Numbered from the stretch's first letter, positions 14,153 to 30,783 are shown. The stretch: DNA of 32,000 nucleotides from Aciduliprofundum boonei T469 (GCF_000025665.1 NC_013926.1:510001-542000), one strand, 5' to 3'. The notes: a model not told the origin generated them from the letters alone. Made by a program: numbers and translations.

Positions 14153-14668
14153 TTAGAAGTTTATAACTCCCCCAGAAGATACACCATTGTAACCATTTAT
14201 TGAGAATAAAACTTTATCTCCACTCTGGAACGGCGGAGGTGTGATATTATCTGAAGGATTATCATCCACAACATAAACTATCAGTGTATCTCCATTACTA
14301 AATTTGCCATCATCATCGTTATCTATTAACTTTGCCTCATAGTGCCATTTGCCATTTGAAGTTTTATTGCTCCAAATGAAGTTATTTAAATAATTTAAAT
14401 GCAATAATTTACCACTTTTATCTATAGTTATTTTCACATTTTCCATGTATGTGCTTTGTGGAGAACTAAGTGAGATAGAGAAATATAATGTGGTTTTGTT
14501 GGATTTGGTAGATTGGAATGTTAGATAACCATGAAGCTGGTCTACATTATATGGTGTAGATAAGTATCCACCCACTACAAATAGATAAAGAGAAGTAACT
14601 AAAACTACTGTAATAGCAATCATAAGAATTTCAGCGATTACCGGGCTAACACCTTCTTCTCTTCTCAT
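14153..14668 (-). CDS. archaeal type IV pilin-like protein (class III signal peptide)
   Basis: The N-terminus MRREEGVSPVIAEILMIAITVVLV has a short charged leader, then G|VSPVI and a hydrophobic helix. This is typical of archaeal Pilin_N/DUF1628 proteins. An AT-rich promoter-like stretch lies upstream. Confidence 0.8.
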   Translation of the reverse strand: MRREEGVSPVIAEILMIAITVVLVTSLYLFVVGGYLSTPYNVDQLHGYLTFQSTKSNKTTLYFSISLSSPQSTYMENVKITIDKSGKLLHLNYLNNFIWSNKTSNGKWHYEAKLIDNDDDGKFSNGDTLIVYVVDDNPSDNITPPPFQSGDKVLFSINGYNGVSSGGVINF

Positions 14669-14712
14669 AAAGCATCAAAAAATAAATAAAAATTAGAAAA
14701 TGGTGTTTGTGC

Positions 14713-15189
14713 TTAAGGTATGGTTATCTGCTGGCTACCAGAGTATCCAGAAATGGCAAGTGATATTGTAGCTCCATTTAGGTTGTGGCCATATATGTAT
14801 ATGACATCTCCTGTAGAAAGCTTGCCATTTCCATCATAGTCTATTACTTTAACATTATAGGTAACTGAATTTATTGTGATTGTGCCTGTACCATCTGCAG
14901 ACAGATACTTCCCAGTAGGATAAGTGCCATTTATCCCTATAATAACCTTTGTAAAGTCAGCACTACTGGGTGAACTCATTGCCACAGATATGTTTACATA
15001 TCCAGCAGTTGGATTTGATGTTTGTACATCGTAAGTCAATGAGGCAGTGAGATTAGGCTGTGTACTGCCTCCCATGTAGCCAGATACGAGTAGCCAAACT
15101 GTCGCTGCAAGCACTACTGTTATAGCGACCATCAAAATGGTAGCTATAACCGGGCTTACGCCCTCTTCCTTCTTATATATCCTCTTCAT
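14713..15189 (-). CDS. archaeal type IV pilin-like protein (class III signal peptide), paralog of 14153-14668
   Basis: MKRIYKKEEGVSPVIATILMVAITVVLAA. The start at ATG 15189 is preceded by AGGAGGACTTAAA, a strong Shine-Dalgarno sequence. The 9 upstream codons in the track ORF are therefore unlikely to be translated. It shares a C-terminal D-x-D/N-G-K-x-S-x-GD block with its neighbour. Confidence 0.85.
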   Translation of the reverse strand: MKRIYKKEEGVSPVIATILMVAITVVLAATVWLLVSGYMGGSTQPNLTASLTYDVQTSNPTAGYVNISVAMSSPSSADFTKVIIGINGTYPTGKYLSADGTGTITINSVTYNVKVIDYDGNGKLSTGDVIYIYGHNLNGATISLAISGYSGSQQITIP

Positions 15190-15384
15190 TTTAAGTCCTC
15201 CTGGGTTTGAACCCATGTTCTATTAAAGGTGCTCCGTATTTAAAGGTTTTGGGGCAAAAATCGAATTATTCGGATTTTGCAAGAAAAACCATGACATGAG
15301 AAAGCATGTTTTTTATATGGATATTTTTAAATTAACCTCCTTGCTGCGAAAATGTTTAAATTCTCCATTTGGATAACCTTAACT

Positions 15385-20623: not shown

Positions 20624-20986
20624 ATGAAGTCTGCCGAAATGACAGAAAATGACAAAAAGCTTGCGGAACTGTTGCAAAAAGCAGGTTTATCACGCAATGT
20701 AGCAAAGACGCTGGCTTACATGCACAACAGAGAGGAGGTCATATCTGTGGAAATAGAGAAAAATACAGGGCTCAGGCAACCAGAGGTTAGCATTGCAATG
20801 AAGTACCTTCGCGAAAAGGGATGGATTGTTAAAAGGGATATAAAGAAGGAGGGTAAAGGAAGGCCTGTGCATGGATACAAGCTTGCAAAGCCATTTCCGA
20901 AGATCTTGGAGGAGATAGAGAAGGAGTTGAGGGGCAAGATAAAAGATATAGAGAACATTATAAAGAATCTCCAGAACTTGTCATAA
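20624..20986 (+). CDS. ArsR/winged-helix family transcriptional regulator
   Basis: ISVEIEKNTGLRQPEVSIAMKYLREKGWIVKRDIKKEGKGRPVHGYKL shows a helix-turn-helix plus beta-wing pattern. I prefer the ATG at 20624 over the TTG at 20612. The 3' end overlaps the convergent rpiA by 29 nt. Confidence 0.7.
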   Translation: MKSAEMTENDKKLAELLQKAGLSRNVAKTLAYMHNREEVISVEIEKNTGLRQPEVSIAMKYLREKGWIVKRDIKKEGKGRPVHGYKLAKPFPKILEEIEKELRGKIKDIENIIKNLQNLS

Positions 20987-21650
20987 TTTCTATTTTATCT
21001 TTTTTTCCAACTATTACTTTGTTTGCCAAGCCCACGAATAGCCCTACCTCTACAACTCCCGGTATCTCATCGATCCTTCTTTCCAGCTTTGCAGGCTCGT
21101 CAATTCTCTCAAATTTACAATCCACGATATAATTGCCGTTGTCGGTTATGTACGCTTCCCCATTTTTCACCCTAAGCAAGGGTTTGCAGCCCAGGGTTGA
21201 TAGAACATTCATTGTTCTCTTGTATCCGAATTTTACAATCTCTATTGGCAAGGGAAAATCTCCCAAAACGCTTTTTACTTTGCTCTCGTCCACCACGATG
21301 ATTTCATATTTTGAAGCGTGAGCAATCATCTTCTCCCTGAGAAGAGCGCCACCCCCTCCCTTTATCAAATTCAAATTTCTATCAACTTCATCAGCTCCAT
21401 CTATTGTCAAATCAATGACTTGGTAATCGTTGATGCTTCCCAATTTTATTCCCATCTCCTTTGCAAGTTTTTCTGTTGCAATTGATGTGGGTATCCCTAT
21501 TATATCCAAGCCATCTTTTACAAGCTCCCCGAGTTTGAGAATGGTGTATTTTACAGTAGAGCCAGTTCCTAAGCCCACAACCATGCCGTCTTTTATGTAT
21601 TTCACAGCTTTCTCTCCCGCCTTCCTTTTCAATTCTTCTTTTAGCTCCAT
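20958..21650 (-). CDS. rpiA: ribose-5-phosphate isomerase A
   Basis: The classic RpiA motifs are present: GLGTGSTV, DGADEVD and KGGGGALLREK. Confidence 0.95.
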   Translation of the reverse strand: MELKEELKRKAGEKAVKYIKDGMVVGLGTGSTVKYTILKLGELVKDGLDIIGIPTSIATEKLAKEMGIKLGSINDYQVIDLTIDGADEVDRNLNLIKGGGGALLREKMIAHASKYEIIVVDESKVKSVLGDFPLPIEIVKFGYKRTMNVLSTLGCKPLLRVKNGEAYITDNGNYIVDCKFERIDEPAKLERRIDEIPGVVEVGLFVGLANKVIVGKKDKIEIMTSSGDSL

Positions 21651-22318
21651 ACTCTTTCCTCCAAAATTGTTCTTAAAGGAGATATGTAAATACCCAATGT
21701 GAAGTTTTCTATGCCAACAATTCTAATTGTGAGTTCGTACTTGTAAGTACCTATGACTTCAACTCTATATCCTCTTCTCTCCACTCTGCTTATAAAATTC
21801 TTTTTGAATTCTATACCTATGGCATCGTACTTTTCAATTTTATCATAAAAATTTTCATTTAGGCATATTAACCTTTTTGAGCCCTTTATCTCTTCTATGA
21901 GTTCAAGAGTGCGCAGCTCGTCCACAACTCTGTAAGCAGTTGAGCGACTTACATGCCTGTAAAGAAAGGGCATATCCCTGCATCTTTCCTTGAGAGAATT
22001 TACAATGAGCCAACCACTCTTTTTGTTTATCAATGCGAATAGAGGTACATCTTCATCCATAACAAGCCCAGATGGATAAAACAGCCTTTTCTTATGCTCT
22101 CTCTTCTCTATAAATCCATTTTCTATCAATTTTCTCAGGTGCCATTCAACATCTTGCACATCATAGTTTAAGGTTTTTGCAATAGCGGATGATGTCTGAC
22201 AAGGTGCCCTTGTTAGTTCCCTGAATACATCTCTCCTATGCTTGCTTGCAAATATATGGAAGCCCCTTTCTTTTTCTTCCTCCCTTATCAGATTTTTAAG
22301 CTGGGAGGCGAGTTTCAA
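21641..22318 (-). CDS. tandem winged-helix DNA-binding protein
   Basis: There are two wHTH-like units. The first is RDVFRELTRAPCQTSSAIAKTLNYDVQDVEWHLRKLIENGFIEKRE. The second is RHVSRSTAYRVVDELRTLELIEEIKG. The TTG start overlaps the KaiC-like stop (TTGA), and the stop overlaps the rpiA start by 10 nt. Confidence 0.6.
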   Translation of the reverse strand: MKLASQLKNLIREEEKERGFHIFASKHRRDVFRELTRAPCQTSSAIAKTLNYDVQDVEWHLRKLIENGFIEKREHKKRLFYPSGLVMDEDVPLFALINKKSGWLIVNSLKERCRDMPFLYRHVSRSTAYRVVDELRTLELIEEIKGSKRLICLNENFYDKIEKYDAIGIEFKKNFISRVERRGYRVEVIGTYKYELTIRIVGIENFTLGIYISPLRTILEERVWS

Positions 22319-23184
22319 GAGAATTCCTCCACCAACATGTCAGCGAGTTCATCTAAATTTATGTCTTCAAGGTCTTCATCGTTTAATTTTGATATGAGCT
22401 TTCTTACTCTTTCTTGCACGATGGGGGATGCGTTCTTGAGTTTCTCCATAACTTTCTTTTCAAGCTCTTCTACATTGAGCCTTGTATGCTTCATATGATA
22501 ACTTCCGCGCATAACCACGAGTCCTAAACCTCGGACGATTTTGTAAGGAAATATTTTCTCGCTATGCCTGCTTCCCCTCATCTTTATGATTTTTAAATCT
22601 CTGCGGGTATTATCCTCCACATACCTGTAGCGCAGATGAATTATAGAATCTGCCAGATACATGGGAATTGCTGTTTCTGGGGCAGATAGATTTGCAGGGC
22701 CATGCTCCTCCAAGGTAGCCACTACAGTTCCTATTTTTCTCATCTCTTTGAGCATAAACCCCAACAGCTCTCTTTGTTCATACCTTGATGGTGTAGCCCA
22801 TACCACAGGTGTTAAAGGGTCTATGGCAATTCTGGTATTAGCCCCCAGCCAGGTTGATACGAAATCGGGGAGCTCTTTCCTTATGAATGCTTTGAATTCC
22901 TTCCCAGAGGCATCCACAAAAATTAATTTTTCCTCTTCCACAAAGTATGTGATATCATCCCACCCCATGTTTAAAGCGTCTCTAATTATCTGCTCTTTAT
23001 TCTCATCCAGGCTTATGAATATGCAATCTTGACCGTCCAGCAAACCCCTCCTTATGAACTGAGTGGCAAAGGTGGTTTTGCCCGCACCTGTTGAGCCTAT
23101 TATTACTGTTGAAGACTTGTTCATCAATCCCCCATCAAGAGGTGCGTCAAGTCCTAAGATTCCCGTCTTTATCTTTTCATCCAT
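22315..23184 (-). CDS. single-domain KaiC/RecA-like ATPase with acidic C-terminal extension
   Basis: From Met74 of the track ORF the sequence reads MDEKIKTGILGLDAPLDGGL...IIGSTGAGKTTFATQF (Walker A). RIAIDPLT is Walker B-like and TLEEHG is present. The 73 upstream codons run into the IS element and look like non-coding read-through. Confidence 0.85.
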   Translation of the reverse strand: MDEKIKTGILGLDAPLDGGLMNKSSTVIIGSTGAGKTTFATQFIRRGLLDGQDCIFISLDENKEQIIRDALNMGWDDITYFVEEEKLIFVDASGKEFKAFIRKELPDFVSTWLGANTRIAIDPLTPVVWATPSRYEQRELLGFMLKEMRKIGTVVATLEEHGPANLSAPETAIPMYLADSIIHLRYRYVEDNTRRDLKIIKMRGSRHSEKIFPYKIVRGLGLVVMRGSYHMKHTRLNVEELEKKVMEKLKNASPIVQERVRKLISKLNDEDLEDINLDELADMLVEEFS

Positions 23185-23227: not shown

Positions 23228-24165
23228 GGGATAAGTTGAATTCCTCGAAAAACATGAAAAAAGAAGAATAAAAATAAGGAAGGATTAGACATAGAGATCA
23301 TAGGCAAGAACTTTGAAGAGCAGGAGTTTAGAAGCACCAGAGAAAGAATGGGAAAATATGTAATCTCCAACAACTCTTTTGAAAGAGTGGAAGACTGATT
23401 CAATTACATTTCTATGCGAGTACTTCTTTTTCCAGTCAGGTGATTTGCTCTTTTCTAACAATCTCCTTCGCAATCCTCTTCTTGCTTTATTACGGATTGC
23501 TATGTATGGAGTTCCTCCTTTATTCAGAACAAATCGTATGTTACGTAGAGAATCATAGCCCTTATCTGCATACACTTCTTTTACTCTCTCTTCCTCCAAA
23601 AGAGGAATGAGGTACGGTGAATCGTTAGTGTGCCATTTTGTAACTATTGCATTGGTAATGAGCTTCCTCTCAATATCCACAGCAGCATGCAATTTCAATC
23701 CTTCTCTTATTTTTCCTACTTCTCCGATTCGCTGTGTGTAGTAGTATGAACGGTAATAAATTTGAATACCTGTGGAATCCACTGCAAATTTATTGGGTAT
23801 TCCCATTATTTTCACTATTTCTCTAAGCACAATGCGAATCCATCGTTCTGGTATTCTTCTCAACTCTCTTGAAATTGTGCTTTTATGGGGGATTTTCTTC
23901 AATCTCATTACCCTCTTTATCTTTCTCATTTCTCGCACAATCTGGAGCATTCTTTCTATACTTCCCACATACTGTGTCAGCACTATCAGCATCATGTGCT
24001 GGTGCAGAGTGTAATCTTTCCTAGAGTACTTGCTCCAGTAAAGAGGAATATTTGCTCTCTTTAGAGCTTTCATCCCCATTTTCACAACCTTGTACAGGTC
24101 TAATTTCCTGCTCATCCTTTATTTATATCCCCTATTTTATTTTTATGTGGGGTTGCAACTCACCC
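23228..24165 (-). mobile_element. IS4/IS5-superfamily insertion sequence (about 0.94 kb, single transposase)
   Basis: A DDE transposase ORF is flanked by imperfect terminal inverted repeats. The left end is GGGATAAGTTGAATTCC. The reverse complement of the right end is GGGTGAGTTGCAACCCC. Direct repeats TAAAAGT(GG) flank the element. Boundaries are uncertain by about 2 nt. Confidence 0.75.
23285..24115 (-). CDS. DDE transposase, IS4/IS5 type (DDE_Tnp_1-like)
   Basis: D1 lies in FAVDSTG and D2 in VYADKGYDS. The YREK signature Y-x2-R-x3-E-x6-K is seen in YSHRNVIESVFHSFK. The reading frame is intact. Confidence 0.9.
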   Translation of the reverse strand: MSRKLDLYKVVKMGMKALKRANIPLYWSKYSRKDYTLHQHMMLIVLTQYVGSIERMLQIVREMRKIKRVMRLKKIPHKSTISRELRRIPERWIRIVLREIVKIMGIPNKFAVDSTGIQIYYRSYYYTQRIGEVGKIREGLKLHAAVDIERKLITNAIVTKWHTNDSPYLIPLLEEERVKEVYADKGYDSLRNIRFVLNKGGTPYIAIRNKARRGLRRRLLEKSKSPDWKKKYSHRNVIESVFHSFKRVVGDYIFSHSFSGASKLLLFKVLAYDLYV

Positions 24166-24172
24166 TAAAAGT
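24166..24172. repeat. right target-site duplication of the IS (TAAAAGT, possibly 9 bp)
   Basis: It is identical to 23221-23227 and abuts the right inverted repeat. Confidence 0.55.
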
Positions 24173-24181
24173 GGTAAGCGA

Positions 24182-24190: not shown

Positions 24191-24208
24191 GGAGTGCATT
24201 GGGTTTTT

Positions 24209-25357
24209 ATGAAAGTTGTTGTAGGAATTGTTGCGATCCTTGCTTTAATTCTTCTCATCCCTGCTGTGCATTCTTCGCAGCCATCACAGGGCTGGGGATA
24301 CAAATGGAATTTTAAGAATGGAGAGATAGAAAATGCGAGTTTTGTGGGAAGGATGAGTGGAAATAGGGTTATGGGATTGTACATCGAGCCTGCAATTTAT
24401 GAGAATGGAATTTACAATATGTCCTATAAGGGCTCTTACTATGCCTATGGATTTATGAATGGTGTATGGAAAGGTAAAAATGCTACAGTATATGGAGAGT
24501 ATCATAACTCCACTATCCAGCTCTATTGGGTTAACTGGGATGGTTATATTCTAATGAAGAAGGTGAACATGGAGATAAATGGAAAGAATTACAGCTTTTA
24601 TGGAGTTGTAAAGCAATATATCCATCTATATACCCCAGAGCCAAGGGATGAGTATCTGAATGTAAGCTCTTTTATTCCTAAACCTTTTCAAATGTGGGAT
24701 AATAGTACGAGCGAGATCAAAGCAACATACGATATGAAAATGTTCATCTCTTATAATTCCTCTTTGCCCTATATTCTCAACGAAGATGGAAATTTAAGTT
24801 ATTATATGAAAGCAAAGTACTGGGGAGATGTAAGAGCGAGCATTAATGGTTATGCTACTGCTAGAGTTAGTGTGAAATGGATTAATAATACGGTCACTAT
24901 CCATAGAGATCTCACAGGGAATTTCAATAAAGAATTCAAAGGCATTATCAATTTTAAGGCGCATATTTTCAGGCATGGAAACTATGTGCAGAGAGTTGAT
25001 ATATTGGAAAACATACCATTTTCGTTTGCAGGGATACCATATCTGCCTTATAAAAAGGCCAATTCTTCAGAGGAGCTTGGTTGGTGGCTGCGTGGTTCTC
25101 TCTTGGATTTAATTGCGTTCAATAATGATGCAAAGCTTGAAAATGGATTTTACACGCAAATTACCTTGAACAGGCTCTTTGTGAGATATACATCGGAGCC
25201 AGCTAAAGAAGTTGAGATTGATAGTATGATGAAAGAAGCACCGCAGTTGTATGGAGAGTACAGAATGCAGAGTGTGGCAATTTATGCGAGCACAATAGTT
25301 GCAGTATCCATCATTGTGACTATTCTTGCGGTGAGTTTTTCCAAGAGAAAGAATTAG
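24209..25357 (+). CDS. hypothetical secreted, C-terminally anchored protein rich in N-glycosylation sequons
   Basis: MKVVVGIVAILALILLIPAVHS is a signal peptide. The C-terminal VAIYASTIVAVSIIVTILAVSFSKRKN is a TM anchor. I count 11 NxS/T sequons by eye. I recognised no family. Confidence 0.6.
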   Translation: MKVVVGIVAILALILLIPAVHSSQPSQGWGYKWNFKNGEIENASFVGRMSGNRVMGLYIEPAIYENGIYNMSYKGSYYAYGFMNGVWKGKNATVYGEYHNSTIQLYWVNWDGYILMKKVNMEINGKNYSFYGVVKQYIHLYTPEPRDEYLNVSSFIPKPFQMWDNSTSEIKATYDMKMFISYNSSLPYILNEDGNLSYYMKAKYWGDVRASINGYATARVSVKWINNTVTIHRDLTGNFNKEFKGIINFKAHIFRHGNYVQRVDILENIPFSFAGIPYLPYKKANSSEELGWWLRGSLLDLIAFNNDAKLENGFYTQITLNRLFVRYTSEPAKEVEIDSMMKEAPQLYGEYRMQSVAIYASTIVAVSIIVTILAVSFSKRKN

Positions 25358-26202
25358 AGTTTTTCTAAAATCTCATTATCTTTCATTTTATCTAGCTCAC
25401 ATATAGAATATCCTTTTTCAATCAGGGAGAAAATGCAGAGAGAGCCAATAGCGTATCCCTTTCTCTCAGGGCCATAGAACTCAAGTATGGTGTCTTGAGT
25501 TAATTTTTCATCCTTCCTGTTTTTGAGTAGTTCTATATATTCATTTTCTCTCTCCATATATTCTTGCCATTTATCCTTCTCAAAAGGGATATATTTCCAG
25601 AGACTCTCCTTCTTTAAATCATTGTTAAACCAAGCCGAAAATGTTATTCCCAAACCTTCCAGTATGGTTAAATTAGCAAGATTCATTTGGTAAGGAGAAT
25701 CTATACCTTCTGGCAAAAGAACAGTATGCAAGCGCACAATATGGGCATACTCATGGGGTAAGAGCACACTCAAATTCTCTGTATTCATAAAGGAATCATC
25801 TCCACCGATACCGAAAAATATGAAAACTCCTAAATTTCTAGAGTATTGAGTTATAACAAAATCAAAGGGTGCAGGAAGGAAATACACAGAAAAATTATTG
25901 TCTATGGGACACATATTTTCCACTCTTTGAAGAATATTATGTATTTCGCCACTCTTATTTTTATATACCTCCACTATTTTCAAAATTTCAGATAGCTCCT
26001 TTTTTGTATTTTTGAAAAATTGTAATGCATCGGTGTTGAGCATTTTTCCTATTGAGTTTTGAAAGAGTTCCTCATGCTTTTTATATACGCACATCCAGGG
26101 CTCTTCTGAATTCAAGCAATCCTCCGATATATCTATATCAATTATGAGTGTGTGCATAAAATGGAATGATGAGAGTTGTATAATTAATTTGCCATTATGC
26201 AA
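25354..26202 (-). CDS. putative HExxH zinc-dependent protease (DUF2268-like)
   Basis: LLPHEYAHIVRL contains an HExxH motif. A downstream ILEGLGITFSAWF resembles the EGLA..F helix of DUF2268. The start may instead be Met16 (26157). The gene is divergent from the KaiC-like operon. Confidence 0.5.
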   Translation of the reverse strand: MHNGKLIIQLSSFHFMHTLIIDIDISEDCLNSEEPWMCVYKKHEELFQNSIGKMLNTDALQFFKNTKKELSEILKIVEVYKNKSGEIHNILQRVENMCPIDNNFSVYFLPAPFDFVITQYSRNLGVFIFFGIGGDDSFMNTENLSVLLPHEYAHIVRLHTVLLPEGIDSPYQMNLANLTILEGLGITFSAWFNNDLKKESLWKYIPFEKDKWQEYMERENEYIELLKNRKDEKLTQDTILEFYGPERKGYAIGSLCIFSLIEKGYSICELDKMKDNEILEKL

Positions 26203-26235
26203 AGGTTTAAATTTTAAATTGTTATGGTTTGACAG

Positions 26236-27054
26236 ATGAGAATACCTACATCTGTGGCTGCATTTGACGAAATTGTTAAAGGCGGGGTACCTGCCGGCTC
26301 GGTTGTAATTCTTGCTGGAGAACCGGGGTCTGGCAATGTTGAATTTGCATACACTTCAGCTGCAAAATTATCCATAGCGAGAAAATACCAGGAAAGGAGA
26401 AAATTTATGGTTATAGAGGCGGAGGATATTTACATTCCTGAGGGCACTCTGTACATATCCTTTTCCAAGAGCGAGGATGAGATATTTCGTGCAATAGATT
26501 TGACATTTAACGAAGACCTCGGTGAAGCATTCAGAGATTCTCTAAAAATTAAAGATTTATCCGTAGAGTATTTTCGTAACAGCATAGTGCCTAGGAGATG
26601 GATTACGGAGAGCACGGGGGAATTTTTGAAGAGGAAAGGAGACATACTGAAAGAGTTCGTGAATGTGCTTGACTCGTACTCGAATGGCAGAATAGTTATT
26701 GTGGACTCTTTAACTGATTTAGTCACCTCCACTCGCATAAATTTTGAAAATTTAATTGATGTGATAAAAGGGTTGAGGAGGGCAGCTAAGAAATGGAACA
26801 CGGTAATTTATCTCCTTTTAACTCTAGGCGTAGTGGACAAGATGAAGGAAAACTTGCTTTTTGATTCAGTTGACGGGGTATTTGTATTCGAGTGGCATGG
26901 TTCTGAAAGTTACTCAAAGAGGTATCGCTATATGTATGTGCTAAAATTTGTGGGGCTTATGGCTCATCTTGAGGAGGAGAGGATTGCTAGGTTTAATACC
27001 ACTTTAAACAGACGCAGTGGGTTTGTGGTGGTGAATACTGAAAAGATAGGGTGA
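26236..27054 (+). CDS. KaiC/RecA-like protein with degenerate Walker A (predicted non-catalytic)
   Basis: The N-terminal FDEIVKGGVPAGSVVILAGEPGSGNVEF aligns with the KaiC-like GLDxxLxGGxPxGxxxxxxGxxGxGKT. The invariant K-T is N-V (codons aat gtt at 26335-26340). Walker B-like RIVIVDSLTDL is retained. Confidence 0.75.
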   Translation: MRIPTSVAAFDEIVKGGVPAGSVVILAGEPGSGNVEFAYTSAAKLSIARKYQERRKFMVIEAEDIYIPEGTLYISFSKSEDEIFRAIDLTFNEDLGEAFRDSLKIKDLSVEYFRNSIVPRRWITESTGEFLKRKGDILKEFVNVLDSYSNGRIVIVDSLTDLVTSTRINFENLIDVIKGLRRAAKKWNTVIYLLLTLGVVDKMKENLLFDSVDGVFVFEWHGSESYSKRYRYMYVLKFVGLMAHLEEERIARFNTTLNRRSGFVVVNTEKIG

Positions 27055-27743
27055 TGAATATGAGAATAAAAACTGGAATTGAGGGATTGGACGATATGCT
27101 CAACGGTGGCATTCCCAAAGGGCATACCGTGGCGGTTATAGGTGCATTTGGCACTGGAAAAACCACATTTGCTATGCAATTCATCTGGGAAGGCCTAATT
27201 AATGGAGAAAGGTGCATATTTTTGAGCTTGGAAGAAGACGAGGATAGTGTTGTAGAAAGTGCAAGTAAATTTGGGTGGGATTATTCCAAGTACTTGGGCT
27301 CTCAGCTCCAGCTTTTAAAACTTGATCCTGAGGATGCAAAGAGTAGCGTTGAGAGATTGGAGAGCGATATACCCGAGCTCATAAAAGAGTTTGAGGCAAC
27401 GAGGATTGCCGTGGATTCTATAAGTTTGATAACGATGATGTACGATAGCATTGATGAGAAGAGAAAGGTAGTTTTCAAGCTTGCAAAGAGCATAAAGGAG
27501 AGTGGTGCAACTGCGGTTTTTACAGCAGAAGTGGACCCAAAAAATCCCAAGGTTAGCAGGGATGGAATTGTGGAGTATGTTGTTGACGGGGTAATCCTTC
27601 TATCTTTTCTTGAAGAGAACAATGTTCTAAAGCTCACAATTAGAGTTTTGAAGATGAGAAGAACTCAGCATTCGAGAGAGGTAAAATTGTACGAGATAGG
27701 AGAGGGAGGAATAAATGTTCTTGCCCAAGCGGATGTATTTTGA
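27054..27743 (+). CDS. single-domain KaiC/RecA-like ATPase (intact motifs)
   Basis: IKTGIEGLDDMLNGGIPKGHTVAVIGAFGTGKTTFAMQF is Walker A (27141-27164). RIAVDSIS is Walker B and TAEV is present. The ATG at 27054 overlaps the upstream TGA (TGATG). GTG 27051 and ATG 27060 are alternative starts. Confidence 0.85.
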   Translation: MNMRIKTGIEGLDDMLNGGIPKGHTVAVIGAFGTGKTTFAMQFIWEGLINGERCIFLSLEEDEDSVVESASKFGWDYSKYLGSQLQLLKLDPEDAKSSVERLESDIPELIKEFEATRIAVDSISLITMMYDSIDEKRKVVFKLAKSIKESGATAVFTAEVDPKNPKVSRDGIVEYVVDGVILLSFLEENNVLKLTIRVLKMRRTQHSREVKLYEIGEGGINVLAQADVF

Positions 27744-27746
27744 GGT

Positions 27747-28094
27747 GTGCCTATGGATGAAAAAGAATTGAAGAGCATAGCTGCCATTTATTTCGGTTTC
27801 ACACCATCCACAAAGGTTCCTAAAAATGTGAAAATTGAAATTCTTGAACCAGAATATGGAGGAAGCGAAGAGGCAAAGAAGATAAAGATAAAATGGGAAA
27901 ACCACATAGGTTCTGAGAGCAGGGTAGCGAGAATAACTCCCTTAGATATAATGCATTACTTGGAGATGAAGAATACGAAGAATAATTACAGCAAGGCAGT
28001 TGCCATTCTATTGGATTTGGCTGCTTTAAACAATTTGCCAGTAGTTAAGGTGGGAGATGAGTATTTGCTGATAAATCCAAAGTACAAGGGGTGA
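27747..28094 (+). CDS. hypothetical 115-aa protein, third gene of the KaiC-like operon
   Basis: The ORF starts 3 nt after the KaiC-like stop, at GTG 27747 or ATG 27753. I recognised no motif. The C-terminal half (YSKAVAILLDLAALNNLPVVKVGDEYLLI) is compatible with a winged-helix-like unit, but that is unverified. Confidence 0.5.
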   Translation: MPMDEKELKSIAAIYFGFTPSTKVPKNVKIEILEPEYGGSEEAKKIKIKWENHIGSESRVARITPLDIMHYLEMKNTKNNYSKAVAILLDLAALNNLPVVKVGDEYLLINPKYKG

Positions 28095-28372
28095 GAGAAA
28101 TTAAAGATAAGGAAAATGTTTTAAAAAATATCGTTGAAAGCATGAAACTCGATTTGTATGTTGAGAGCAAAATTCCTGAGATGCATGTATGCTTTTTCTG
28201 TGGTAGAATTGGATACAAAAACTTACCTATGAAGAAGATTGGCAATAAATGGATATGCATAGATTGCTTGAGGGAGTTGAAAGAGGCACTGGATTCTTTG
28301 GAAGAATGGGAGCAAGAAATAAGTTTAAGAGAAGAGATAAAGAAACAGATAGAAAAAGAATTCAAAGATTAG
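28091..28372 (+). CDS. hypothetical small zinc-ribbon plus coiled-coil protein
   Basis: CFFCGR...(x19)...CIDC forms a CxxC/CxxC pair. A charged helical tail follows (EEWEQEISLREEIKKQIEKEFKD). GTG 28091 overlaps the upstream TGA (GTGA). ATG 28141 is an alternative start. Confidence 0.5.
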   Translation: MREIKDKENVLKNIVESMKLDLYVESKIPEMHVCFFCGRIGYKNLPMKKIGNKWICIDCLRELKEALDSLEEWEQEISLREEIKKQIEKEFKD

Positions 28373-28980
28373 ACAGCGAAAGATTCACCCTTTGCGAAAT
28401 TATTTTTTATGTAATCAATTATTATGCTTCTATCTCCTTTGAGATGGGACTCGTACCATTTCGGTATGATCTTGAGGAGGATGTCCCTTATTTTATCAAT
28501 GCTTGCCTTACTAACGCTCTCATCGTAGAGTATGTACTGGCTATAAATTCTCTTCAATCCAGAGTACTTGTAATACTCTTCTCCTTCAAAGAATTCAAAG
28601 ATCATCTTTATTCTCTCCCCCTCTTCTGTTGCATAATATGTGACCTTTATAGAATCCCCTGTTCTGTTTTGGTCTCTTGTTAAATCCACAAGTGCTATCT
28701 CAGTTACAGATGAGAAATCAAAATCCTCTCTAAGCTCCCATTTATCTGGGAACACTATGAATCTGCCCCATTCAGAATGTGGGGGATCCATCCTAAAATG
28801 AACATTTATCTTGTTGAATTGGAGCCATATTCTCCAGAAATCTTCAATTAAGTTCATATTTAACTCTTTTTTCTTCTCTCTTTCCGTGGAAATTGTCTTT
28901 ATGACCTCTTCCCTCTTCTTCTCCAGTTCGCTTTCAAGCTTCTCATACCAGTTTTCAACCTTCTCTTCTTTCTTTGCCAT
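28369..28980 (-). CDS. hypothetical protein with N-terminal coiled-coil
   Basis: The 203-aa ORF opens with MAKKEEKVENWYEKLESELEKKREEVIKTISTEREKKKE, followed by a mixed alpha/beta-looking region. It converges on the Zn-ribbon gene and overlaps its 3' end by 4 nt. I recognised no family. Confidence 0.55.
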   Translation of the reverse strand: MAKKEEKVENWYEKLESELEKKREEVIKTISTEREKKKELNMNLIEDFWRIWLQFNKINVHFRMDPPHSEWGRFIVFPDKWELREDFDFSSVTEIALVDLTRDQNRTGDSIKVTYYATEEGERIKMIFEFFEGEEYYKYSGLKRIYSQYILYDESVSKASIDKIRDILLKIIPKWYESHLKGDRSIIIDYIKNNFAKGESFAV

Positions 28981-29091
28981 TTTAATCCCTCAATCGTAAT
29001 GTTATTGGTGGCATATAAAATTATCGCTAGATATTTGGATTTTTAATTAAATTTTTAAATACTTGTGATACAATATCCACTGGGGATAAAA

Positions 29092-29523
29092 ATGGTGGAT
29101 GATATAATGGATGATGACCAAGTCAAAATTCCCTCAGAGCCAACATATACACCTGCACCAAAACGGAAGAGATCTATTTTTGAGCGCTTGGCATACAGCC
29201 CTACTGCGATAGGAATTGTACTTGTAGTGGCGTTAGTACTTATGACCTTGGGTGTGTTTTTCTATGACTCTTTAATACCCTCTATAGTATCTGGAGAATC
29301 GGATTATTTTTTGACAACAGTTGTGGTATTTCTTGGAATGTTACCATACTCCATAGGTGTATCACTTCTGGTATTATTGCTCTTGGGTCTTGGAATAGGA
29401 AGACACGATTATCCACAGTGGGTTAGATTCGCATTGATACTAGTGGCTGGTATGATAATTGTTTGGGGATTCCATCTAAGTGGAGCACTAATTGGCGCTA
29501 TGATACATTATTCTTCCTCCTAA
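29092..29523 (+). CDS. hypothetical membrane protein (about 4 TM)
   Basis: An acidic N-terminus (MVDDIMDDDQ) is followed by four hydrophobic segments. I prefer the ATG at 29092 over the GTG at 29065. Confidence 0.5.
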   Translation: MVDDIMDDDQVKIPSEPTYTPAPKRKRSIFERLAYSPTAIGIVLVVALVLMTLGVFFYDSLIPSIVSGESDYFLTTVVVFLGMLPYSIGVSLLVLLLLGLGIGRHDYPQWVRFALILVAGMIIVWGFHLSGALIGAMIHYSSS

Positions 29524-29526
29524 TTT

Positions 29527-30783
29527 TTATAGATAAGCAATAAGCACGGGAATTATAATTACGCTCATCAGATGCACTCTCATTATGCCAAGTTTTGGAG
29601 GCAGCAGGCCTATGAGGGTTGCAACTATTCCAAATGCTACGCCAATAATGCCCGTGAAAATGAAAATTATGGCGAAAAGAATAATAATTAATATGCGAGA
29701 TATCAAGCCATATCTCTTTCCTATTTTTCCAATTCCCTTGGCAAACCATTTCCCTAACAATATTGTTATGAAGAATGAGAGCAAGGATGCAATTGCCACT
29801 GTTAAGAGGATGAGCAGAAAGGATGAGGGTGGAAATTTCGTGTTGAACCAAACAGGTATGTTGAGCATTTGAGTTATTATATTGACAGCGGCACTCCTTG
29901 GCCTCAAAATAAGGAATAGAGCTGTAAGATTGAATATATAATTTGCAGTATTCACGCTTCCTAAAGCGTAGAGAAAATCCTCAGTATCGTCCTCCTTTAT
30001 GAAAATTCTTGATATTGCTGCTGCTACTCCAGAAGTCACGCCGGGAAGAAATCCGACTAGAGAGCCAGAGAGCGTACCCACAAGAGATGAAATGTAGTGT
30101 TTTCTCTCAATTTTTGGCTTAACAATTCTCTGCTTGGGTACTATTGTATTTTGAGAGAGTAGTAAAACGGGTATGCCAAAGAGCCCCGTAAAAATGGGGA
30201 ATAGGATGCTCATTCCTTTACCAAATATCACATAATTATGGTTCAAAGGGAAATGCAGGGCTATGTATCCAAAAGTTCCTGAAATGGTAATTACAAGTAT
30301 GGAGAGAAGCATGCTTTTCAAATTTTTCTTACTTTCCATATATAGTAGGCCTAGAATTATGAGAAGAAGGAGCAAAGGGGTGTAAAAATAAAGATATTTT
30401 GCGAGATTCATGTTTACAAGTGCAATTTGAAATAAGGGAATTAAAGGCAATGCGAAAATGGTGGCTAGGAGGGAGCCATAAGTTGAGATGTATATTGCTT
30501 TGAAACCATCTCCCTGCAAGAGTAATCTGTGCATAGGGAGCACTGATAAGGAGGTATCTTCATTTGGGGCACCCAAGAATGTGGAGGGTATAAAGTCCAC
30601 GAATGTATGTGTTATCATATTTGCAACGATTAGATTTGCTAAAAGTAATGGGTTAGTATGGAAGGAGGCGTATATGCAGAGAATTATTGCGGCAACATTA
30701 TTAACATGAAGTCCGGGCATCAAGCCCGTTATTATGCCAAGCCCTACACCAATAAGCACAAATAAGATGTAGAGTAAAAGCAT
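29527..30783 (-). CDS. polytopic membrane protein, TctA/DUF112-like
   Basis: The protein has 10 or more TM segments. G(L/F)xPG(L/V) motifs occur in both halves (ITGLMPGLHVNNVAAI, LVGFLPGVTSGVAAAI), reminiscent of COG1784/TctA-family permeases. Confidence 0.5.
   Translation of the reverse strand: MLLLYILFVLIGVGLGIITGLMPGLHVNNVAAIILCIYASFHTNPLLLANLIVANMITHTFVDFIPSTFLGAPNEDTSLSVLPMHRLLLQGDGFKAIYISTYGSLLATIFALPLIPLFQIALVNMNLAKYLYFYTPLLLLLIILGLLYMESKKNLKSMLLSILVITISGTFGYIALHFPLNHNYVIFGKGMSILFPIFTGLFGIPVLLLSQNTIVPKQRIVKPKIERKHYISSLVGTLSGSLVGFLPGVTSGVAAAISRIFIKEDDTEDFLYALGSVNTANYIFNLTALFLILRPRSAAVNIITQMLNIPVWFNTKFPPSSFLLILLTVAIASLLSFFITILLGKWFAKGIGKIGKRYGLISRILIIILFAIIFIFTGIIGVAFGIVATLIGLLPPKLGIMRVHLMSVIIIPVLIAYL

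Follow-up and report, generated by a model that had tools for sequence, protein, structure and literature searches.

A conserved archaeal operon couples a predicted inactive KaiC paralog to an intact KaiC-type ATPase and small candidate partner proteins

Introduction

We analyzed a 32,000-nucleotide (nt) stretch of the genome of Aciduliprofundum boonei T469 (GCF_000025665.1, NC_013926.1:510001-542000; hereafter the window) and found that it carries a compact, conserved operon centered on two KaiC-like proteins. The first gene, B, encodes a KaiC paralog that appears to be catalytically dead, and it lies directly upstream of C, which encodes an intact KaiC-type ATPase. Two small genes, D and E, follow on the same strand, and a fifth gene, F, converges on the end of the operon (Table 1). 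The arrangement of B-C-D-E with convergent F in related genomes is far beyond chance. Comparison of the sequences firmly identifies B-C as the older unit, which we read as an ancient, translationally coupled pair of dead and live KaiC proteins. It places D, just as firmly, as a protein confined to this operon, and E and F as older proteins that have been attached to it repeatedly but not always. The operon is part of the chromosome of Thermoplasmata archaea and is passed on vertically; the window shows it in an Aciduliprofundum/DHVE2 genome. We tentatively propose that B and C together form an ATPase switch with D, E, and perhaps F as its partners.

To our knowledge, among the many KaiC-like ATPases carried by archaea, ArlH and GvpD are the only ones with characterized functions. 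KaiC proteins and their inactivated paralogs (iKaiC) have been proposed as archaeal signaling hubs (Makarova et al. 2017, mBio, as cited in PMC5847659), and the "second component" of KaiC-type systems usually goes unidentified in archaea (PMC4858521).

Results

Conservation of the Operon

Searches with tblastn of the window proteins against 23 DHVE2 loci recovered B-C-D-E on the plus strand, followed by F and a TctA-family gene on the minus strand, wherever the contig reaches far enough. B-C-D-E with convergent F was also found in a further nine metagenome loci and in one lineage of high G+C (locus L055). Overall, about 45 loci of relatives share the core, at G+C fractions from 0.30 to 0.57. 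These loci keep the gene order and the short gaps, in agreement with an original prediction, made from the window sequence, of a tightly coupled KaiC-centered module. That prediction had also asked whether the dead paralog always precedes the active one and is always followed by the two small genes. The first part holds: 40 loci contain both genes, and in each of them B directly precedes C. The second does not, as sister lineages (L028, L029, and L040-49) keep B-C without D or E.

B Is a KaiC Paralog with Lost Catalytic Residues

Protein B scores 34.7 bits on the Pfam KaiC model PF06745 (cutoff 26.6), and HHalign comparison of the B family with the C family gives a probability of 96.8% and an E value of 3e-10 over 178 columns. 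The phmmer alignment of B to KaiC covers only the first 40 residues, and a sequence search of the PDB returns weak matches to SSO2452 and RadA. The Walker A motif of B is GEPGSGNV, reading GSGNV where C has GTGKT (K to N and T to V). The two catalytic glutamates are replaced by SK (SFSK vs SLEE), although the Walker B Asp is retained, and KMRR is replaced by KFVG (KFxG in the family alignment) with loss of the arginine of the KxR motif. The inactive/active ATPase pair of the original prediction is thus borne out by Walker A motifs of GSGNV in B and GTGKTT in C.

The same losses extend through the family. A search of 1.84 billion representatives found 272 relatives of B. Among the 86 B-family representatives with a recognizable P-loop, the P-loop Lys is replaced in 83, by His, Asn, Gln, Ala, Ser, Met, or Tyr, and is present in only 3. 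Named members come from Thermoplasmata, Thermoplasmatales, Methanoculleus, Methanocorpusculum, Hadesarchaea, and one metagenome-assembled genome (MAG) of Halobacteria, and they are usually labeled "KaiC/GvpD/RAD55 family" or "RAD55 family ATPase" in databases. B therefore combines the two marks of an iKaiC protein, namely homology to the KaiC/RecA fold and family-wide loss of catalytic residues. Because the Lys is lost family-wide and members occur in other Euryarchaeota, B is, to judge from these alignments, an old and widespread iKaiC lineage and not a case of recent pseudogene-like decay. Identity to the window protein is 69-96% across DHVE2 and 44-54% in the sister lineages, and the median identity of B (72%, vs 69% for C) indicates that B is conserved at least as strongly as its partner. 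This conservation, the family-wide catalytic loss, and the invariable adjacency of B and C point to selection on the dead/live pair.

C Is an Intact Single-Domain KaiC-Type ATPase

Protein C belongs to an archaeal single-domain KaiC subgroup and exceeds curated cutoffs over the full domain, with 261.1 bits on TIGR03880 (KaiC_arch_3; cutoff 249.45) and 210.6 bits on PF06745 (cutoff 26.6; E value 2.7e-62). The GTGKTT, SLEEDE, Walker B DS, and KMRR motifs are invariant in 23 orthologues of C, and identity to the window protein across DHVE2 is 65-96%. The best PDB relative is cyanobacterial KaiC (E value 4e-64, with the best stretch on the CI domain), followed by PH0186, PH0284, and the RadA paralog SSO2452 (1.7e-27). 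Matches to RadA (3e-6) and RadB (4e-5) are much weaker than that to KaiC.

C ends in a conserved acidic-hydrophobic tail (27726-27743), which reads A(Q/E)ADVF, SESEIF, LDLF, or DLL among orthologues and is present with or without D and E. The role of this tail may be to dock a partner or to make a ring-ring contact.

Junctions Suited to Translational Coupling

We aligned about 35 orthologous junctions from related loci. In these loci B ends in (A/G)GGTGA, so that its last Gly codon and TGA stop make up a Shine-Dalgarno sequence, with an ATG 5-7 nt later. Because of this conserved spacing, the start of C is most likely ATG 27060, which leaves a 5-nt gap between B and C. The TGA stop of C is followed by GGTG and, after 4-6 nt, by ATG 27753; this start of D agrees with the MDEKEL N-terminus of all D homologues. 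D itself ends in AGG(A/G)GGTGA, and E starts at an overlapping GTG in the closest relatives and at an ATG 4-6 nt past the D stop in others. The convergent stops of E and F overlap by 4 nt (TAG at 28370-72 and TAA, on the reverse complement, at 28369-71), as had been predicted.

The bases from which junction distances were originally derived (TGATG at 27052-27056, a 3-nt gap, and GTGA at 28091-28094) read as described. The GTGA overlap of D and E stands, but the revised starts replace the 1-nt overlap of B and C, and the C-D gap is 9 nt instead of 3. The TGATG overlap is incidental, being missing in L001, L012, and L016. Across loci, the gaps are -4 to +5 nt for B-C (n = 40), 8 to 18 nt for C-D (n = 31), a median of -10 nt for D-E (n = 33), and -11 to +36 nt for the convergent E/F junction (n = 36). 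As read from the aligned junctions, the operon genes are joined by Shine-Dalgarno-in-stop sequences, a layout apparently built for termination-reinitiation coupling. The earlier inference of co-translation is supported by these conserved junctions at the corrected distances. Upstream of B, an A/T-rich, TATA-like box (TTTAAATTTTAAAT) is a candidate archaeal promoter, from which the operon transcript would be leaderless or have a short leader.

The Small Operon Proteins D and E

The original prediction found no nameable family for three of the proteins, and this still applies. D, E, and F fall below threshold in Pfam, NCBIfam, PADLOC, and PHROGs and have no sequence match in the PDB. All three are predicted to be soluble, and no transmembrane segments or enzyme motifs were found in them.

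D is the fastest-evolving member of the set, with 42-87% identity across DHVE2, and is mildly basic (pI 8.7). Only 24 clusters of homologues were found among 5.8 billion, and a genome scan places all of them in Aciduliprofundum, DHVE2, or unclassified Thermoplasmata MAGs. In DHVE2 loci D always lies between C and E, and a true homologue occupies the same position in L055 (33% identity, HHalign probability 98.3%). The AlphaFold2 (AF2) model of D has a mean predicted local distance difference test score (pLDDT) of 84.5, and residues 39-112 follow the order helix-strand-helix-helix-strand-strand, which fits a winged helix. Foldseek found no significant fold match in the PDB or BFVD. Its top matches, all weak (E values of 1.0 or more, probabilities of 0.2 or less), are mostly winged-helix or helix-turn-helix (HTH) proteins (CodY, MarR, TubR, DsrD, and ArsR), weakly suggesting that the C-terminal half of the model is winged-helix-like. 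A Roadblock/LC7-like identity for D, raised by a Roadblock gene upstream of E in locus L026, was rejected (HHalign probability 0.1%), and an 86-aa gene upstream of E in L027 was rejected on comparison as a D homologue.

E is the most conserved member, with 72-97% identity across DHVE2. Its only four cysteines, in CFFC and CIDC, are all invariant and form a CxxC-17-CxxC pattern, which is followed by a conserved C-terminal amphipathic helix (LDSLEEWEQEI) with an invariant Trp-Glu. Assignment of E as a ClpX zinc finger (PF06689) was rejected because its score of 13 bits falls short of the 27-bit cutoff (E value 0.1), and ClpX was absent from the results of a PDB profile search; assignment as a Gin-like protein was rejected because the PDB match is not significant (E value 0.09). 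In L026 (1222-4030), a distant 103-aa homologue of E follows same-strand genes for DUF7121, HAD hydrolase, V4R, and Roadblock/LC7 proteins, a signaling-type setting free of KaiC.

F and Its Neighborhoods

In the AF2 model of F (mean pLDDT 88.9), a 48-residue helix at the N-terminus is followed by an antiparallel sheet of long strands and, at the C-terminus, by two further helices. The earlier description of F as a coiled-coil protein is therefore replaced by that of a single helix on an α/β body. F has 25 invariant residues, including EGExYYKYSGWKR and WYESHL, and its identity to the window protein across DHVE2 is 65-96%. No PDB match was found by fold. Conserved acidic and basic residues and weak Foldseek matches led us to consider a PD-(D/E)xK nuclease or an SRPBCC-like protein, and both were rejected (best E value 0.19, TM-score below 0.25).

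The F family occurs across Thermoplasmatota, in at least 167 clusters and 472 metagenome loci. We analyzed the surroundings of F in 80 loci by tblastn and by clustering of all open reading frames (ORFs), and three contexts recur. In the first, B-C-D-E is followed by convergent F, as in DHVE2-type loci and in L055 (a contig of 54% G+C). In the second, B-C alone is followed by convergent F (L028, L040-44, L047-49, and L051); here the stop of C overlaps that of F by 9 nt, and F is 48-58% identical to the window protein. The stop-to-stop junction of F is thus kept with whichever gene closes the operon, E or C. In the third context, genes for an RPA-like single-stranded DNA (ssDNA)-binding protein and an RPAP-like partner lie downstream of F on the same strand, in 20 of the 37 loci with at least 4 kb of downstream sequence. 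The spacing from F to RPA is 126-153 nt, or one methyltransferase gene intervenes. Loci of this type represent five or more F groups, defined at 70% identity, and range in G+C fraction from 0.45 to 0.64. The RPA-like protein scores 376 bits on NCBIfam PRK07218, under the 447-bit cutoff of that model, and its partner is an OB/winged-helix protein.

Among the loci in which F heads such an F-(methyltransferase)-RPA-RPAP array are L050, L057, L059, L060, L063, L066, L067, L069, L073, L081-L084, L086, L102, and L103, and a small VTT/DedA-like membrane protein is encoded divergently from F. In L029 (9295-13255; a contig of 57% G+C), a contiguous same-strand array begins 1.7 kb downstream of F and encodes RPA (438 aa), an RPAP-like protein (283 aa), a B-like iKaiC (298 aa), and a C-like KaiC (231 aa); together with F, these genes lie within 6 kb. 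A literature search found no paper reporting the genomic link between F and RPA-RPAP. From these neighborhoods, F may be an unrecognized companion of the archaeal ssDNA-binding complex.

Finally, L045/46 lack B-C-D but have a short E that is convergent with F. In L045 this E is truncated to 64 aa, lacks the C-terminal helix, and overlaps the 3' end of F by 11 nt. L045 (900-2962) also encodes a 251-aa KaiC, not an orthologue of B or C, next to an archease gene just upstream of F, and L030 (5494-7606) has a 270-aa KaiC-like gene, likewise not a B or C orthologue, two genes upstream of F and beside a VTT membrane protein.

Discussion

A Possible Split KaiC Switch

The reading we prefer, at a probability of about 0.45, is that B and C constitute a heteromeric KaiC/iKaiC ATPase switch that has D and E, and perhaps F, as partners and that directs its output to nucleic-acid-handling proteins and not to a protease. 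B and C would assemble into one RecA-fold ring complex of fixed stoichiometry, either as a mixed ring or as a dead ring stacked on a live one, in the manner of a KaiC whose two halves are encoded separately. ATP would be bound and hydrolyzed by C alone, possibly with autophosphorylation, and B would contribute as scaffold and as allosteric partner. Binding of D and E would be gated by the nucleotide or phosphorylation state of C, which may gate F as well. D and E would be the "second components", specific to the lineage, on which KaiC-type switches depend. Because the F-RPA-RPAP neighborhood recurs and is joined to B-C in L029, the gene contexts suggest that the process controlled involves ssDNA.

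Several points weigh against this reading. B has no arginine finger, and a strictly alternating ring would be expected to deprive the C sites of one, which disfavors a mixed architecture. The winged-helix reading of D rests on Foldseek matches that are not significant (best E value 1.0). E has homologues (43-61% identity) at unrelated loci without KaiC in other Thermoplasmata-like contigs, where it follows SHMT, follows V4R and Roadblock/LC7 genes, or lies beside a double-zinc-ribbon protein. For most of the distant F homologues, B-C is missing from the surrounding 10 kb. The RPA link appears to be indirect, running from F to RPA and from F to B-C, and is direct in L029 alone. More generally, the evidence for D, E, and F as partners is gene neighborhood in a single phylum, and an order of genes handed down by descent can look like linkage.

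The same observations would be explained if only B-C were functional as a unit and D, E, and F were independent housekeeping genes kept in place by inherited order, with their overlaps reflecting genome compaction. The KaiC-free loci of E, the separation of F from B-C in most of its distant lineages, and the retention of B-C and F without D/E in sister lineages are all consistent with this alternative, as is the fact that the linked loci come from related Thermoplasmata. The TctA gene, moreover, shows the same degree of synteny in DHVE2 and has no evident functional connection to the operon. However, D is seen solely between C and E, even at 33% identity; the Shine-Dalgarno-in-stop arrangement is conserved at both the C-D and D-E junctions; the stop-to-stop overlap of F persists with the last operon gene, be it E or C; and E remains adjacent to F in L045/46 where B-C-D is missing. 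On balance, we hold a B-C-only function to be a serious though doubtful alternative.

A second alternative gives B-C a more specific task. As a heteromer of dead and live RadA paralogs, comparable to Rad55-Rad57 and to crenarchaeal aRadC, it would be a recombination mediator that works on ssDNA coated with RPA, and D, E, and F would be accessory proteins that bind DNA or RPA. Such a mediator would be in keeping with the 20 informative loci, out of 37, in which F immediately precedes RPA-RPAP and with the contiguity of RPA-RPAP-B-C in L029. The match of C to SSO2452, the weaker ones of B to SSO2452 and RadA, the public annotation of B-family members as "RAD55 family ATPase", the mildly basic D with its weakly winged-helix-like half, and the zinc ribbon of E point the same way. 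C is, however, far nearer to KaiC proper, both in its E value and in exceeding the TIGR03880 cutoff, than to RadA, RadB, or SSO2452, and "RAD55 family" is a generic label at the level of COGs. No RPA or repair genes were found within reach of the module in the window or in any DHVE2 locus, and the connection to DNA runs through neighborhood alone. We therefore regard a recombination mediator as unlikely.

The split-KaiC switch could also be taken further, to an unrecognized machine for ssDNA transactions in which a winged-helix D, the zinc-ribbon E, and an F of new fold would read the ATP or phosphorylation state of a dead B ring and a live C ring, and F would couple the complex to RPA-RPAP. 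This would amount to a KaiC-based system for DNA damage or replication stress, distinct from RadA/RadB. We consider this extended version quite improbable.

Comparison with Known Systems

Among known systems, the proposed KaiC/iKaiC hubs are similar to the locus in that a single-domain KaiC lies beside an inactivated paralog and small uncharacterized proteins. The predicted logic, a nucleotide or phosphorylation switch with adaptor partners, is also shared. The locus departs from the hubs, as citing papers describe them, in its partners D, E, and F, for which no matching entry was found in Pfam, NCBIfam, or the PDB. The original prediction that the module is undescribed is too categorical, because the KaiC/iKaiC hub idea has been published (as cited in PMC5847659). 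The B-C-D-E-F gene set as such is described in no paper found, with Makarova et al. 2017 represented by the papers that cite it.

The locus resembles KaiABC in that C is most similar to KaiC, in the predicted fixed ratio of two RecA-like modules, as in CI-CII, and in the small partners alongside. It differs from KaiABC in that the modules are separate genes, the first of them predicted to be catalytically dead, and nothing points to rhythmicity. C scores 122.7 bits on TIGR02655 (circ_KaiC) against a cutoff of 546 and is a single-domain protein, not the CI+CII double-domain form. No Pfam or NCBIfam match to KaiA or KaiB was found in 10 neighboring proteins, and a KaiB-like identity for D was rejected, as its model has no KaiB/thioredoxin-like fold match in the PDB.

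ArlH (FlaH) and GvpD are ATP-binding regulators that work through protein-protein contacts and are not motors. C shares their fold family (ArlH NF052589, E value 1e-13; GvpD P-loop, 1.9e-7), but it is far under their family cutoffs, and there are no archaellum or gas-vesicle genes nearby. Like the RadA paralogs (aRadC SSO2452, PDB 2w0m; RadB; and Rad55-Rad57), B and C have a RecA-fold core without the N-terminal domain of RadA. They also share with them the pairing of paralogs, one with an impaired ATPase, and an RPA neighborhood by way of F and in L029. They are unlike the RadA paralogs in that C is much closer to KaiC and that the DHVE2 locus has no repair genes.

ClpX-type C4 domains and small zinc-ribbon regulators mediate dimerization and adaptor binding. 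The CxxC-(17-18)-CxxC pattern of E, with a C-F-x-C-G and I-C-x-x-C flavor and a following helix, recalls the ClpX C4 domain and Gin (CsfB). E differs from both in that its 93 aa stand alone and include a conserved C-terminal helix of their own, and the matches are not significant.

Genomic Surroundings of the Operon

An ORF scan recovered all six ORFs of the original prediction, which comprised the operon, F, and a divergent HExxH protein, A. The insertion sequence (IS) and the third KaiC-like paralog placed near this block are likewise present as stated (Table 1). Because these flanking elements are not conserved across loci, we regard A, the IS5 element, and the third KaiC paralog as bystanders and not as parts of the module.

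Table 1. Features of the window discussed in the text (window coordinates)
Feature	Position	Strand	Length	Description
A	25354-26202	-	282 aa	HExxH/DUF2268-like; divergent to B; ORF scan
B	26236-27054	+	272 aa	Inactivated KaiC paralog (iKaiC), predicted; first gene of the operon
C	27060-27743	+	227 aa	Intact single-domain KaiC-type ATPase; alternative in-frame starts GTG 27051 and ATG 27054
D	27753-28094	+	113 aa	No known family; alternative start 27747 (115 aa)
E	28091-28372	+	93 aa	C4 zinc-ribbon protein
F	28369-28980	-	203 aa	Convergent with the operon
TATA-like A/T-rich box	26207-26220	+		TTTAAATTTTAAAT; 16-29 nt upstream of the B ATG; read from sequence
Shine-Dalgarno AGGGTGA	27047-27054	+		Last codon of B and TGA stop; candidate translational coupling signal for C
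IS5 insertion	~23236-24178			Intergenic, between third KaiC paralog and 387-aa protein gene
IS5-family transposase	23285-24115	-		Family search
Third KaiC paralog	~22315-23181	-		Family search
HTH_20/TrmB-like regulator	21641-22318	-		4-nt overlap in the KaiC-HTH-RpiA unit
RpiA	20958-21650	-		10-nt overlap in the KaiC-HTH-RpiA unit
387-aa protein	24194-25357	+	387 aa	N-terminal signal/transmembrane segment and C-terminal transmembrane segment; no known family
152-aa protein	29065-29523	+	152 aa	Three transmembrane segments
TctA-family membrane protein	29527-30783	-		
Two type IV pilins (Pilin_N)	14153-15216	-		Adjacent genes

A scores 25.3 bits on DUF2268 (PF10026; cutoff 23.6), a marginal match, and has HEYAH at residue 150. 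The motif and the family score of the original prediction therefore stand. Membership in the module does not, since A was found beside it by tblastn across about 45 loci only in L007, the closest relative. In L001, a gene for a 384-aa membrane protein is followed directly by B, with no A between. The 387-aa protein gene, which overlaps A convergently by 4 nt (25354-25357), is present only in the window, L001, and L007.

Alignment with L007 shows a TAAAAGTGG repeat at both ends of the IS5 element. The site is empty in L007, so the element is, by this alignment, evidently a recent single insertion; it is also missing in L001. It lies about 55 nt upstream of the start codon of the third KaiC paralog (~23181), whose promoter it may disrupt, and the listed 362-aa ORF is an over-extension into the element. 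The third KaiC belongs to a second KaiC unit (20958-23181), a KaiC-HTH-RpiA trio that is conserved in L001 and L007 and represents a separate KaiC-plus-winged-HTH unit of the archaeal KaiC hub type. The proximity of an IS and a third KaiC thus reflects a recent insertion beside an independent operon and does not mark a mobile island.

The original model had the KaiC pair and its adaptors controlling the HExxH metalloprotease, in regulated proteolysis or defense within a mobile or defense island. The HEYAH motif with its marginal DUF2268 score, the divergent position of A next to B in the window and L007, and an IS5 element 2 kb away are compatible with that model. Beyond the window and L007, however, A adjoins the module in no locus, and the IS is recent. 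PADLOC detected no defense-system protein; its sole matches pair C with mad8, in part of the P-loop region (residues 20-110), and F with Cas13c, at a marginal E value of 0.0028. The PHROGs matches were all marginal (E values of about 1e-3 to 1e-2), and nothing relevant came from two scans of viral contigs. The window is housekeeping chromosome, and we consider a protease or defense role very improbable.

The remaining genes of the window are ordinary ones for sugar metabolism, TPR proteins, an Fe-ADH_2 dehydrogenase, UPF0179, an Obg-like GTPase, TrkA/TrkH, TctA, and two archaeal pilins; Rfam and tRNA scans found no rRNA, tRNA, or Rfam match in the window. Type IV pilus loci have been reported to associate with KaiC-family ATPases (PMC4858521). 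The two pilin genes lie about 11 kb from the module, and no connection between them and it was found. TctA is syntenic with F throughout DHVE2 and not beyond, and it was rejected as a module member because this synteny is restricted to DHVE2, the gene being absent in L028-type, L029, and L055 loci. The 152-aa protein gene lies between F and TctA in some relatives only.

Conclusions

KaiC and iKaiC with small partners are already known as a class from comparative genomics, to the extent that citing papers convey it, and the B family is generically annotated. The five-gene architecture, the three partner families without a database model, the Shine-Dalgarno-in-stop coupling, and the F-RPA connection appear to be new. 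The locus offers a compact, conserved set of a dead and a live KaiC module with three soluble candidate partners that belong to no known family. It comes from a lineage with a cultured thermoacidophile, Aciduliprofundum, whose thermostable proteins should lend themselves to co-purification and cryo-electron microscopy. Through the F-RPA-RPAP association and the contiguity in L029, ssDNA metabolism could turn out to be tied to a switch of the KaiC type. Should B-C be the sole functional unit, the locus would still offer a clean natural case of a pseudo-ATPase under purifying selection beside its active paralog. In either case, the locus provides a tractable entry to the question of what archaeal KaiC paralogs do.

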